A stretch of DNA of 64,000 bases from an uncultured Clostridia bacterium (GCA_934129895.1 CAKOWY010000008.1:298-64297); one strand, 5' to 3'. Shown: positions 2,784-13,338, counted from the stretch's first letter. Translations and numbers: made by a program. The notes: generated by a model from the sequence alone, not told the origin.

Positions 2784-5540
2784 ATGAGTATTTTTAGCAA
2801 AATATTTAAAAGTTATAGTGAAAAAGAAGTAAAGAGAGTAATGCCAATTGTTGAAAAAATAAATTCATTAGAAGATGAGATTTCAAAATTAACAGATGAA
2901 GAATTAAAAAATAAAACAAATGAATTTAAAAATCAATTGAAAGATGGAAAAACACTAGATGATTTATTACCAGAAGCTTATGCAGTTGTTAGAGAAGCAT
3001 CAAAAAGAGTATTAGGAATGAGACATTTTGATGTTCAGTTAATAGGTGGAATTATATTACATCAAGGTAGAATTGCAGAGATGAAAACAGGTGAAGGAAA
3101 AACGCTTGTTGCAACATTACCAGTATACCTAAATGCTTTAACAGGAAGAGGAGTACATGTAATAACAGTAAATGACTATTTAGCAAAAAGAGATAGTGAA
3201 TGGATGGGAAAATTATATAAATTCATGGGATTATCAGTAGGATTAGTTATTGCTGGAATGTCACCAAAAGAGAAAAAAGTAGCTTATGATTGTGATATAA
3301 CTTATGGAACGAATAATGAATTTGGATTTGACTATTTAAGAGATAATATGGTTATATATAAAGAGCAACTAGTTCAAAGAGAATTAGCTTATGCAATTGT
3401 TGACGAGATAGATAGTATATTAATAGATGAAGCAAGAACACCACTTATTATATCTGGTAGAGCAAATCAATCATCAGAACTATATAAAAAAGCAAATGAC
3501 TTTGTAAAAAGACTAACACCAAAAATAATCGTTGAAGAAGATGTAAAAGATGAAGAACAAGCAGAAGATAATGAAAAATATGATTATATAGTTGATTTAA
3601 AAGCAAAATCAGCATCATTAACACAAAAAGGAATAAAAAAAGCAGAAGAAACATTTCATCTTGAAAACTTTAATGATATAGAAAACTCAACACTTGTTCA
3701 TCATGTAAACCAAGCATTGAGAGCTCATGGAGTAATGAAGAAAGATATAGATTACATTGTAAAAGATGGAGAAGTTTTAATTGTAGATGAATTTACAGGA
3801 CGTATTATGTACGGAAGAAGATATAATAATGGATTACATCAAGCAATTGAAGCAAAAGAAGGAGTAAGAATTGCAGATGAATCAAAAACACTTGCAACAA
3901 TTACATTCCAAAACTATTTTAGAATGTATGATAAGTTAGCAGGTATGACTGGTACTGCAATGACAGAAGAAGCTGAATTTGAAGAGATTTATAATTTGGA
4001 TGTTATTGCAATTCCAACAAATAAGCCAATGATTAGAAAAGACCTAGATGATGTTATATATACTACAGAAACTGCAAAATTCAATGCAATTGTTCAAAGT
4101 GTAAAAGAAAGTCATGAAAAGGGACAACCAGTATTAATTGGTACAATATCAATTGAAAAATCAGAAAAATTAAGTGGTATTTTGAAAAAAGAAGGAATAA
4201 AGCATGAAGTTTTAAATGCTAAATATCATGAAAAAGAAGCTGAAATAATAGCTCAAGCAGGAAAATTTGGAGCTGTAACAATTGCAACTAACATGGCAGG
4301 ACGTGGTACGGATATTATGCTTGGAGGAAACAGCGAATATCTTGCAAAACAAGAAATGAGAAAAAATAAAATACCAGAAAATTTAATAGAAGAGGCCAAT
4401 ACATATTATGAAACTGATGATGAAGAAATCTTAAAAGCTAGAGAGAAATTTAATGAACTTGAAAAGAAATATCATGAAGAAATAAAAGAAGAAAAAGAAA
4501 AAGTTATAGCAGCTGGTGGATTAAAGATAATAGGAACAGAAAGACATGAATCAAGAAGAATTGATAACCAGTTAAGAGGACGTAGTGGTCGTCAAGGTGA
4601 CCCAGGAGAATCTAAGTTTTATATAAGTTTAGATGATGACTTAATTAAAATATTTGGTGAAAACTCAATTATAAATAAAGTTAAGGCGAGTCAAAGTATT
4701 CAAAATATACCAATAGAACATAAAATGATAACAAATCTAGTAGAAACAGCACAAAAAAGAATTGAAGGTAGAAACTTTAGTATAAGAAAAAATGTATTAA
4801 AATATGATGATGTTATGAATGCACAAAGAGAAATTATATACAAACAAAGAAGAGAAGTTCTTGATGGTGAAAACTTAAAAGATAATATATTGAATATGAT
4901 AAATTCACTTGCTGAAGAGGTTGTTTTATCACAGTTTGCTGGAGAAAATGAAGTAAATGTAGAAGCATTAAATACAAACATAAAAAATACATTTGGAATT
5001 GATATTAGTAGCTTTATAAAAGAAAATTCAAATTCATCTCAAAAAATTATAGAGGAATTGCAAAAAGAGGCTCTTTCAGAATATGAAAAGAAGGAACAAG
5101 AAATTGGTGCTGATGAATTAAGAGAAATGGAAAGAGTTGTTATGCTTAAAGTGGTTGATCAAAAATGGATGGATCACATTGATGCAATGGATGAATTAAA
5201 AGATGGAATTGGACTTAGAGCTTATGGACAACAAGATCCTGTTGTTAAATATAGGATTGAAGGTATGGATATGTTCGAGGAAATGGTATTAGATATAAAA
5301 CATGATGTTGTTCAATTAATGATGAATGTTCGTAAACAAGATGAAGTAAAACGTGAAGAAACAGCTAAAATAACAGGAGCAGCATTACAAAATTTAAAGG
5401 GATTAGATGCTGATCAAAGTAAAGTAAAATCAGAAGTTAATAGAACAGTTGTTAATTCTGGACCTAAAGTTGGAAGAAACGATCCATGTCCATGTGGTTC
5501 GGGTAAAAAGTATAAGAATTGTTGTGGCAAGAATGTTTAA
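2784..5540 (+). CDS. secA: Preprotein translocase ATPase SecA
   Basis: The 934-aa ORF has DEAD-motor motifs ([24 protein letters not shown]) and the C-terminal zinc finger [17 protein letters not shown]. The likely true start is ATG 2784 (MSIFSKIFK) behind RBS ggaagg..gagagg. Confidence 0.95.
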
Positions 5541-5730
5541 ATACTAGATTTGGAAGGATTTATGAATATTTAAAAAATTAGCAGCAAAATCAGATTGTCA
5601 CCCAAACTTAAATAAAAATTTGATAAATGCTTAAAAATAAAGGAGTGTAGCCCAAATAAAATGGGTGACACTTCTTTTTTATACTTATATATGATATAAA
5701 ACAAATATATATAAAATAAGGAGGAATTAT

Positions 5731-6992
5731 ATGGGAAGAATCAATACTAGAAAAAGAGGAAAAGTTTACGAATACTTTTTTGAAGGTGCAAAAGTAAACA
5801 ATAAAAGAACTAGAATTTCAAAATCTGGATTTAGAACAAAAAATGAAGCTTATTTAGCAGGAATGAAAGCTTATAATGAATATGTTAATGGAAAAATCAA
5901 AAAAGAATCACAAATGTCATATTTAGATTATTTAGATTATTGGATGAAAGAATATTTTGAAATTAACTACAAATATTCAACAGCCAAAAGATATAAAGAA
6001 TCATTTGACGCAATAAAGAAAATACTTGGAAAGTATAGAATTTGTAACATTACTCCATTTATACTAAATCAAGCATTATTAAAACTATATCAAAAATCAG
6101 GAACAAAAGAATCTTTAAGAAATTATCAAAAGGTAATAAAAAGTTCATTAAGAGATGCGGCAAATTATTTTGGGTTTATTGATGGTAATCCAGCAGGAGA
6201 TTTACAAATTCCAAGAGTTCTATCATTTGAACCAAAAAAAACGTAATAAAACATATCTATACAAATGAAGAAATTGAAAAAATTTTATTAAGATTTCAAA
6301 ACAATCCAACATTTACTTGTGCGTTTTTAACAGCTTGTTATACTGGGATGAGAACAGGAGAAGTATTTGGGCTAACTTGGAACGATATTGATTTAAAGAA
6401 TAAATTAATAAGAATAAATAAAACTGTGTATTCAAAATTGAAAGACGAAAAAGGAAGATGGTTTCTAGGAACAACTAAAACAGATGGAAGTTGTAGAGAA
6501 GTCTATATTTGTGATACTTTATATAATGCATTATGCAATTATAAAAAGCAACAACAATTAAACAAGAAAAAATATGGTAATAATTATAAAAAGTATTCAT
6601 TAGATCCAATAAAAAATAAATATGGTAAAGTAGTTGAATATAAAATAATTGAGACTAAATATAAAAATGAGAATAATATTGAAATGGTATTTACACGCAA
6701 AAATGGAAGTTATGTAGGAACGGATGTTATTAAATATCCATTTAAAATAATACACCATGAATTACAAATAGAAAATTGTAGATTTTATGATTTGAGAGGG
6801 AGTTATGCGACAAAATGCTTGAGAAACGGCATTGAAATTAAGGATGTTGCTGATATATTAGGTCATAGAAGAATTGAGACTACAGAAAATTATTATATAT
6901 TGAGTAATATAGAATCAAGAAAAAGGGCAAATGGCATTTTAGAGGCAATAATTAATTCTGAAATCATAAATAGAATTATAAAATATAAATAA
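5731..6992 (+). pseudogene. int: Tyrosine recombinase/phage-type integrase (N-terminal Arm/AP2-like DNA-binding domain plus catalytic domain), disrupted by a single frameshift
   Basis: ORF 5731-6246 (MGRINTRKRGKVYEYFFEGAKVNNKRTRISKSGFRTKNEAY...) and ORF 6348-6992 (RTGEVFGLTW..., HDLRGSYAT, LGHRRIETTENYY = R..H.R..Y catalytic residues) are contiguous in sequence. The frame changes at the A8 run 6234-6241. One extra A would give the in-frame ...EPKKNVIKHIYTNEEIEKILL... Confidence 0.8.
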
Positions 6993-7009
6993 AAACACAG
7001 GGTAAAGGT

Positions 7010-7038
7010 TTGCAAAATAGTGCAAAATATGGTAAAAT
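7010..7038 (+). promoter_or_regulatory. Sigma-A-type promoter of the island cargo operon
   Basis: ttgcaa - 17 nt - taaaat. The spacer holds two direct 'tgcaaaata' copies. RBS aaggag sits 9 nt before ATG 7083. Confidence 0.5.
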
Positions 7039-7082
7039 TTGTATGTGAGATAGAAATATGATTTGTAAAAGGAGTATAATGT

Positions 7083-12474: not shown

Positions 12475-13039
12475 TTATCCTAAAACATCTTTATTAATAA
12501 CAAACTAATAAAAAATAATAATGTAAAAATAATGGAAGACAAAGGTTGTAAAGTTAGATACGAGATCTTAAGCAATGAAAGATATGGTGAAGAGCTAGAT
12601 GAAAAATTAAAATAGGAAGTAAATGAATATTTAGCAGATTACAGTACAGAAGAAATGGCATGTGTAATGGATCATTTATGCAATTCTTGAGTTTAGAGGT
12701 GCTAGCATGGAAGAAGTTGAAAAAGTTAGAATTGAGAAGAAAAATAGAAAAGGAGCAATTGAAAAATTTAATGAAATAATAAATTGACAAAGATTGCTCT
12801 ATATGGTAATATTACTTGGTATAATGAAATATAAGTTGTTATACTAAAACATTTCATAATAATGGTAAATAAAAATATGTTGGCGACATTGTTGCCAATT
12901 TGTTGCCACAATATAAGAAAAGATAATTAGGATAATACAATAAATACTATATGTACTTTCTTATATAAATCTTTTAAATTAAGAAATACCAATAGTATAG
13001 ATAATATTGTAAATACTAATAATACTAAATTTTCTACTA

Positions 13040-13089
13040 CATGTGGAAGTGGCAAAAAGTACAAAAACTGTTGTGGAAAAAATGCATAG
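13040..13089 (+). other. Displaced remnant of a secA 3' end (last ~16 codons plus stop). Probable attR-side junction of the island
   Basis: ...[16 protein letters not shown] compared with the secA C-terminus [17 protein letters not shown]. About 70% nt identity with synonymous differences, and shared cores such as catgtgg and tgttgtgg. The in-frame sequence upstream of it is unrelated and closed by a stop at 12928. Confidence 0.65.
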
Positions 13090-13112
13090 GTTCTGTAATA
13101 AATATAAGAAAA

Positions 13113-13148
13113 AAGAATGTAAACATGTAATATGTCTGCATTCTTTTT
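13113..13148 (+). terminator. Rho-independent terminator downstream of the secA remnant (likely the original secA terminator)
   Basis: aagaatg ... cattctt stem with T-run, and an inner acat/atgt stem. The loop is imperfect. Confidence 0.4.
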
Positions 13149-13338
13149 ATAATAATAACATTTCATTAAGACAAATCAACTTACTCTTATAGTATTCCAA
13201 ATGTATAAAGAATATAATAAAAATTATACTTTGGCAAAATAAATGATTTGAAAAGAACAAAAATATTGAAAAAAAAAATCGAATGTGTTAAAATACAAAC
13301 ATTAAATGATGTTTGTATACCGAAAAAAGGAGGATATT

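Follow-up and report, generated by a model that had tools for sequence, protein, structure and literature searches.

Why does a 64,000-nucleotide (nt) stretch of DNA from an uncultured Clostridia bacterium (GCA_934129895.1 CAKOWY010000008.1:298-64297; this whole stretch is hereafter the window) encode the end of secA twice, with seven genes in between? An earlier examination of the DNA without database searches (the sequence-only reading) proposed an integrative island of about 7.5 kb in the 3' end of secA. Following up that proposal, we conclude with a probability of roughly 85% that positions 5498-13039, flanked by the 7-bp sequence CATGTGG, are a site-specific integrative island inserted by its tyrosine integrase with a replacement secA tail, that the site is a hotspot shared with other elements, and that the integrase gene is split and probably recoded. 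Coordinates are those of the window, and features lie on the plus strand unless stated otherwise.

The secA gene (2784-5540), an essential gene for secretion, encodes 918 amino acids (aa) ending in a zinc-finger (SEC-C) tail, and scores 1222 bits against the NCBIfam SecA model (cut-off 814). Its reading frame is intact to the stop at 5540 despite the insertion. Judged by its translation and by comparison with an empty site (contig L008), the gene is a hybrid in which host sequence extends to 5497 and the last 14 codons and stop (5498-5540) are island-derived. Three-way comparison of window 5472-5555, window 13021-13105 and L008 located a CATGTGG core at each end, attL at 5491-5497 and attR, also recovered by repeat search, at 13040-13046. 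Directly past attL lies the element-supplied replacement tail, TTCGGGTAAAAAG...GTTTAA (5498-5540), identified by tail comparison. Past attR lies the displaced native tail, AAGTGGCAAAAAG...GCATAG (13047-13089), which is contiguous with secA in L008.

The two tails encode the same peptide except for the last residue (valine in the replacement, alanine in the native tail), and their differences in the 14 shared codons are all synonymous. The sequence-only reading had placed a second copy of the zinc-finger tail at 13040-13089, about 70% identical with synonymous changes, and had suggested mapping direct repeats between the two ends. A tail is encoded there and the synonymy holds; the identity is 78% over a 45-nt repeat (5491-5535 against 13040-13084), at a spacing of 7,549 nt. 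The identity core of this repeat is the 7 bp of CATGTGG; in the remainder, conservation is limited to the encoded protein.

Contigs of the same species were gathered by an exact look-up of the neighbouring YjjX-like protein in public assemblies. The protein occurs on 202 contigs, of which the 23 longest were compared, and one of them (L008) has the empty secA-yjjX site that the sequence-only reading had advised looking for. Its flanks are 98.7-98.8% identical to the window (secA 98.8%), and its secA (...CCATGTCCATGTGG) runs straight into AAGTGGCAAAAAG...GCATAG, a terminator and, 250 nt later, the YjjX-like gene. At the junction, ...GATCCATGTCCATGTGG, which is window 5460-5497, is followed directly by AAGTGGCAAAAAGTAC...GCATAG, which is window 13047 onward. 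Therefore, 13047-13089 is the displaced native tail and 5498-5540 is element-supplied. From core to core, the inserted island measures 7,549 bp. It is also present in contig L001, whose sequence matches the window at 100% identity over 20.5 kb, and in metagenomes such as ERZ27286953. Occupied and empty sites with an exact junction thus occur in related genomes. As CATGTGG is the only sequence common to attL, attR and the empty site (attB) at the junction, we place the crossover within it. The sequence-only reading had named this heptamer and the octamer tgttgtgg as candidates; the octamer is ruled out, because attL and the empty site are no longer identical in the stretch that separates it from CATGTGG.

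Both tails are followed by terminator-like hairpins with a U-run. The hairpin behind the element-supplied tail (5639-5677; -18.9 kcal/mol, z = -5.0) lies in the P' arm (5541-5730), together with the region upstream of the integrase gene. The native hairpin (13110-13148; -14.8 kcal/mol, z = -5.6) precedes the first core gene past the island, which lies outside the element and encodes a YjjX-like NTPase_I-T protein (13339-13860; Pfam PF01931), an order that the sequence-only reading had described correctly.

The P arm (12475-13039, 565 nt) yielded no convincing open reading frame (ORF) in six-frame translation. Within 86 nt just left of the core it carries four same-strand AATACYAW motifs (12943-13028), which are candidate arm-type integrase sites; related motifs, AAATACTATATGTACT and AATACTAATAATA, stand left of the core in loci L013, L020, L105 and L106. 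The arm aligns with that of the counterpart island in L106 (about 255 nt) over only about 110 nt.

The secA site is used by several elements and did not receive its island in a one-off event. Of the 23 longest contigs, 1 is empty, this island is present in 5, and a 1.6-kb CutA1-HD-YgjV insert without an integrase, the commonest state, is present in 15. In four contigs with that insert that were read (L003-L006), secA ends in a third tail version, ...CCGK and stop, which is two residues shorter. Another occupant (L007) comprises a MobA/VirD2-type relaxase, an integrase remnant, a PHP protein and two tails in series. We observed that L006 has no native tail copy at the right end of its insert, AGTG-rich sequence standing in its place.

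One further contig, L002, was set aside as a second empty site: its secA is of Bacilli type and encodes 831 aa, with 76% nt identity to L043 and about 71-78% to the window secA. This gene (7256-9751) is joined exactly at TGTCCATGTGG to DNA (9702 onward) that is 99.5% identical to the native tail and downstream genes of the window, and the genes upstream (ksgA, veg, spoVG and others) differ from those of the window. L002 may be an assembly chimera, or a product of recombination between the secA tails of different organisms; a follow-up by pattern search matched only unrelated secA genes. Separately, a 26-nt SEC-C coding stretch, GGGCGTAATGATTTATGTCCATGTGG, recurs exactly in three unrelated metagenome secA genes (L100, L101, L102). 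The SEC-C target DNA is very highly conserved.

The integrase gene starts at 5731, adjoining the att site and, as the sequence-only reading had noted, 190 nt past the secA stop. Its first ORF (ORF1, 5731-6246, 171 aa, with the stop at 6244-6246) encodes a putative arm-binding domain and the core-binding (SAM-like) domain, the latter matching Pfam Phage_int_SAM_3 above cut-off. The Arm-DNA-bind_4 match of the window ORF1 reaches 16.5 bits, below the cut-off of 22.3, and most relatives have a precomputed match to this family (PF14657). The second, ORF2 (6240-6992, 250 codons and stop), lies in the -1 frame and encodes the catalytic domain (Phage_integrase, PF00589, E = 3.8e-18). Its motifs TGMRTGE, YDLRGS, ILGH and ENYY align with those of XerA, the first histidine of HxxR being tyrosine here. 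The identification as a tyrosine integrase by the sequence-only reading stands, with the correction that the gene is not a single open frame.

Adding one A to the A8 run at the split fuses the two frames into a 420-aa integrase, which has 1,481 homologues at E <= 1e-20, most of the listed matches being 400-426 aa long. In other species, relatives that are 72%, 71% and 68% identical all come just after secA and are themselves followed by displaced tails. A family scan with one genome per GTDB species returned 80 loci, 48-87% identical, from Clostridia, Bacilli and 'Tenericutes' metagenome-assembled genomes. A SEC-C tail lies within 600 nt of the integrase in 50 of the 80, always on the same strand. 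In 18 loci, mostly of relatives at least 72% identical, the tail is at most 500 nt upstream and the order is secA, tail, integrase. In 32 loci, of relatives 50-57% identical, it is at most 600 nt downstream and the integrase follows an HTH_17 excisionase, in Tn916-type modules of sigma factor, HTH_17 excisionase and integrase. Of the remaining 30, 9 have too little flank to judge.

Many species have arrays of several tails, which we read from their sequences as islands stacked in tandem. Element-supplied tails beside related integrases (L010, L011, L016, L105, L106) have in common the signature TGTGG-TTCGGG-(T/A)AA, in which TCG codes for serine; native tails have AAGTGG or variants. Replacement of the target gene's 3' end and displacement of the original, the process put forward by the sequence-only reading, is borne out by the L008 comparison and by this family-wide adjacency to SEC-C DNA. 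One integrase, P0025, lies beside a C-terminal-type tail in one contig (L013, 11564), and in another (L015, 5097-5756) its neighbour is the N-terminal SEC-C motif of a 219-aa non-secA gene, which hints that the SEC-C motif, rather than the secA gene, is recognized.

The junction sequences suggest how the element would move. A Tn916/Tn1549-type tyrosine integrase would recombine the island's attP with DNA encoding the secA SEC-C tail. Because attP would supply its own tail (the synonymous last 14 codons), stop and terminator, secA would stay intact after insertion, while the original tail and terminator would be pushed 7.5 kb downstream to attR. Each new arrival would insert at the secA end and displace the previous tail, giving rise to tandem arrays.

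The split of the integrase gene falls at a run of eight A residues (A8, 6234-6241), a candidate site for -1 frameshifting or transcriptional slippage. Here CCA AAA AAA ACG places the slippery heptamer A_AAA_AAA (6234-6240) in the 0 frame of ORF1. The gene is not one continuous ORF: the 0 frame, open from 5731, ends at 6246 as ...SFEPKKT followed by two stop codons, and the -1 frame goes on as KKNVIKHIYTNEEIE... into the catalytic domain and to 6992. An alignment with XerA puts the split site in the interdomain linker, with the core-binding domain on one side and the catalytic domain on the other.

This arrangement is conserved. The same -1 offset occurs at the same site in 16 loci representing GTDB species, all rebuilt to uninterrupted frames of about 420 aa, and also in L105 and L106 (the loci sharing the split are L069-L071, L083-L088, L091, L093-L099, L105 and L106). 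Three types of these relatives, seen in L096, L098, L105 and L106, have the run shortened to A7 or A6 by substitution and keep the -1 offset. A query with ORF1 gave the same picture, in that the best 120 clusters (69-95% identical) are all stand-alone proteins of 160-223 aa, most of which end at or just past SFExKKT and none of which reads into KHIY.

The catalytic part encoded by ORF2 is under purifying selection without a start codon of its own. Ratios of nonsynonymous to synonymous divergence (dN/dS) in ORF2 are about 0.1-0.25 among split members, including within-subclade pairs at dS 0.3-0.5, and reach 0.4-0.7 in a few pairs of the closest group. Codon periodicity is present in the ORF2 frame directly after the run (entropies 0.37, 0.25 and 0.70 at positions 1, 2 and 3), at a level reached by none of 10,000 permutations. 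The only conserved ATG, GTG or TTG in ORF2 is 36 codons in (ATG 6348, the methionine of TGMRTGE). As the split is the normal state of the clade, with the frame kept and a start absent, full-length integrase is probably made by ribosomal -1 frameshifting or by transcriptional slippage.

Under this model, normal translation would give a 171-aa protein with only the arm-binding and core-binding domains, and a -1 shift at A_AAA_AAA, either ribosomal or through an extra A added in transcription, would give the full-length integrase. The predicted trans-frame product carries the peptide ...SFEPKKNVIKHIY..., and the control change of the A8 run for a frameshift reporter is A8-to-AAGAAGAA. The need for a shift would keep the integrase scarce, and the DNA-binding-only ORF1 protein may modulate recombination.

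We can also state a wider proposal, to which we would give about even odds. It holds both that a large tyrosine-integrase family of uncultured gut Clostridia and Bacilli recognizes SEC-C DNA, in most cases the tail of secA and in one case an N-terminal SEC-C motif in a different gene, and that one clade makes full-length integrase only via conserved -1 recoding at the linker A-run, its default product being a protein that binds arm and core sites, lacks the catalytic domain and regulates or assists recombination.

Several observations speak against present mobility of the island. A counterpart of the whole island, from integrase to NifS, lies at secA of another species; the two are 77-79% identical in nt sequence, a divergence about equal to that of secA itself. 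The G+C content is 0.266 in the island and 0.269 in the remainder of the window, and the tetranucleotide distance of the island is within the range of other 7.5-kb windows, so that composition, which the sequence-only reading had suggested computing, is not a distinctive mark of this island. As the divergence matches that of secA and the composition is not distinctive, the island may be old, long resident in its lineage and mostly inherited vertically. We found no excisionase in the island, nor anything similar to the small HTH_17 or MerR-like proteins that related elements encode, and the exact 33-nt attP junction of an excised circle was not matched in Joint Genome Institute (JGI) metagenome contigs, where circles are rare and source samples may be absent.

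These observations are the basis of the alternative that has fared best, namely that the island is a fixed relic with a dead integrase, and that strains differ through homologous exchange of the whole locus and not through integrase action. Besides secA-level divergence, indistinct composition and the missing attP junction, it accommodates an integrase that is not one open frame and a commonest insert, CutA1-HD-YgjV, that has no integrase. We nevertheless find it doubtful. Both integrase frames are intact and under purifying selection in at least 16 diverged relatives, and the empty site is base-exact at the 7-bp core. Moreover, unrelated cargos with their own tails occupy the same position and tandem arrays occur in many species; repeated site-specific insertion is therefore required. 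L105 provides an instance in which a second island with a split integrase follows the counterpart island in tandem.

The main rival to recoding is on/off switching at the DNA level, in which the A8 run is a phase-variation switch or mutational hotspot, slipped-strand mispairing yielding A9 alleles that make integrase and A8 alleles that make none. Some of our data tell in its favour and against recoding. In-frame A9 variants occur in two subclades (P0001-P0003 and P0004): the A9 allele in L010 is near-identical to the A8 alleles in L093 and L094 bar run length, and P0004, 90% identical to the window integrase, reads through in frame. Given such variants, on/off switching through slippage in the DNA could explain part of the selection signal. 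We found no conserved RNA structure in the 100 nt 3' of the A-run that could act as a stimulator, and the predicted fold of the window sequence there is not more stable than those of shuffles (z = +0.5). A Shine-Dalgarno-like element at the usual distance from the A-run was not seen by eye. A7 runs are prone to indels and slippage, and IS1 frameshifts at A_AAA_AAC without a known stimulator (PMC4066793).

Even so, we regard switching as an unlikely account of the split. A reversible switch should show many ON alleles, yet the best 120 ORF1 clusters are all split. In L096, L098, L105 and L106, moreover, runs reduced to A7 or A6 would undergo less DNA slippage, but the -1 offset and intact frames are kept and a shift is still needed. 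Recoding, as the preferred explanation, also fits a split that is the rule in its clade.

Between the integrase gene and the P arm, the island carries a conserved six-gene enzyme set. Four genes follow one another on the plus strand: a B12-binding radical SAM enzyme (7083-8333; Pfam PF04055 and PF02310, no NCBIfam model reaching its cut-off), a HIT-superfamily (GalT/DcpS-like) protein (8341-9024; Pfam DcpS_C, CwfJ_C_1 and HIT), a DUF2797 protein (9076-9963; PF10977, E = 1.3e-17; called from window 9142 onward in the identical L001) and a 284-aa protein of no family (9935-10789). The last is an orphan without a match in Pfam, NCBIfam or PADLOC, with 52 homologues; it always stands behind the radical SAM, HIT and DUF2797 genes. 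A bidirectional terminator-like hairpin (10773-10804) separates it from a converging NUDIX hydrolase gene on the minus strand (10808-11212; PF00293), a copy of which, 89% identical, lies beside a related integrase in L095. A NifS-type cysteine desulfurase gene (11311-12474, plus strand; TIGR03402, 554.5 bits against a cut-off of 530.75) completes the set.

The order of the first four genes is kept in L103-L106. In L103 and L104 (6178-9852), the four-gene set occurs at 45% identity beside prophage holin/amidase (lysis) genes, a serine recombinase and ToxN, and in secA islands NUDIX and NifS accompany it. Its distribution suggests that the set behaves as a portable accessory module, possibly with a role in phage-host conflict. 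PADLOC gave scattered matches (radical SAM to PDC-M51A, 8e-17; HIT to PDC-M10B, 0.004; NUDIX to PDC-S07; NifS to DndA/SspA), and no known defence system was matched in the cargo. We rejected NifS as DndA/SspA, the similarity being of the generic IscS/cysteine-desulfurase kind; other Dnd or Ssp genes are absent among the cargo. Likewise, an NCBIfam scan of the cargo found no known system, and a literature search on DUF2797 yielded nothing useful.

Two side observations concern the surroundings of these genes. Homology links positions 11172-11317, which comprise the 5' end of the NUDIX gene and the intergenic promoter region between NUDIX and NifS, to core positions 13159-13291, between the native terminator and the YjjX-like gene (local alignment score 38; shuffles 16.7 +/- 2.7, real control segments at most 29). 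This homology may be the scar of an older, mostly deleted related island, comparable to the deletion derivative in L095. That locus (9944-12671, Clostridium sp. CAG:780) is decayed: behind a split integrase and one gene it retains the final 70 nt of the 284-aa gene, then terminator, NUDIX and promoter region, the latter fused to a core acetyltransferase gene, and it has no displaced secA tail left. Upstream of secA, window 341-2659 (also L003 1-5274) holds the 3' part of a surface-protein gene of more than 1,900 aa with SpaA/CLIPPER-like repeats.

What kind of element is this? Its 7.5 kb hold seven genes, the integrase and six enzyme genes, and none for a relaxase, coupling protein, secretion, replication, capsid or packaging. 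As only integrase and enzyme genes are present, we class it as a genomic island with an integrase and not as an integrative and conjugative element (ICE), integrative and mobilizable element (IME) or prophage. An integrase at one end, the MobA/VirD2-type relaxase of the same-site occupant in L007 and the Tn916-type modules of distant relatives (50-57% identical) would suit a prophage, phage satellite, ICE or IME. Set against the missing relaxase, coupling, replication, capsid and packaging genes, and against 2.9 million IMG/VR viral contigs in which no integrase relative was found, such an identity is very improbable.

Finally, the idea that the second tail resembles secA by chance or belongs to an unrelated small gene, with ordinary chromosome in between, draws on the many weak short repeats of a 27% G+C, A-rich genome and is refuted, since the degenerate back-translated tail motif has exactly two matches in the 64 kb and none in any of 100 shuffles, the empty site joins both halves exactly and the pattern is repeated in dozens of species.

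Our results have several implications. The secA tail emerges as an integration hotspot that is much used across the family, in gut bacteria that have been little studied, and the exact recurrence of the 26-mer target makes these integrases candidates for broad-host, site-specific insertion tools. Annotation pipelines will call split integrases pseudogenes and their islands dead; the conservation we observed suggests that they are neither. If recoding is true, the split also offers a simple model of how an island holds down its integrase level while having neither a separate regulator nor an excisionase.

Elements of this kind are known, an integrase with a target-repairing attP being textbook. 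As far as checked, the novelty lies in the secA target, in how broad the integrase family is and in the conserved split of the integrase. Islands and prophages at the 3' ends of transfer RNA (tRNA), transfer-messenger RNA (tmRNA) and icd genes resemble the window island in that attP carries the replacement end and the gene survives, the displaced end forms an imperfect direct repeat at the far junction, and the integrase gene adjoins att. The window island differs from them in its target, the secA SEC-C tail, and in an identity core of only 7 bp. That attP carries the 3' end of the target gene is a stated general principle (PMC7192596), and the secA tail does not appear as an integration target in the main text of that source or in the part of its supplements searched. 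The sequence-only reading had called secA an uncommon target, and we likewise found no paper on secA as an attachment site in the literature searched, the coverage of which is incomplete.

A second point of comparison is accretion at a single gene. ICESt1, ICESt3 and integrase-less cis-mobilizable elements (CIMEs) sit at the 3' end of fda in Streptococcus thermophilus, with a tyrosine integrase and tandem accretion. Their CIMEs are att-flanked modules without an integrase, as is the CutA1-HD-YgjV insert here. The window island differs in its target gene, its hosts (uncultured gut Clostridia and Bacilli), its lack of a conjugation module and its split integrase.

Tn916 and Tn1549 insert into many AT-rich sites, unlike the window integrase family, which is tied to one coding motif. 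Their integrases (PDB 6EN0, 6EMZ) have the three-part architecture of arm-binding, core-binding and catalytic domains that we propose for the window integrase, which is similar to Tn1549 Int over residues 117-397 at E = 1e-5 and low identity. Distant relatives of the window integrase lie behind an HTH_17 excisionase, as in Tn916.

For the split itself, we found no precedent of a frameshifted integrase in the literature searched, the coverage of which is incomplete, and neither the 2016 frameshifting review nor the GeneTack survey names an integrase or recombinase in the portions consulted. The closest parallel is the OrfA/OrfAB pair of the insertion sequences (IS) IS1 and IS3, which shift by -1 at A_AAA_AAN. 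As in the window integrase, a slippery A-run stands between the DNA-binding and catalytic parts, the 0 frame stops just past the run, and the catalytic part lacks its own start codon. The enzymes differ, the window gene encoding a tyrosine recombinase and IS1 and IS3 a DDE transposase, and for the window gene we infer the frameshifting. If that is true, this would be the first integrase gene organized like an IS OrfA/OrfAB pair, and it would extend recoding of this type from transposases to tyrosine recombinases.

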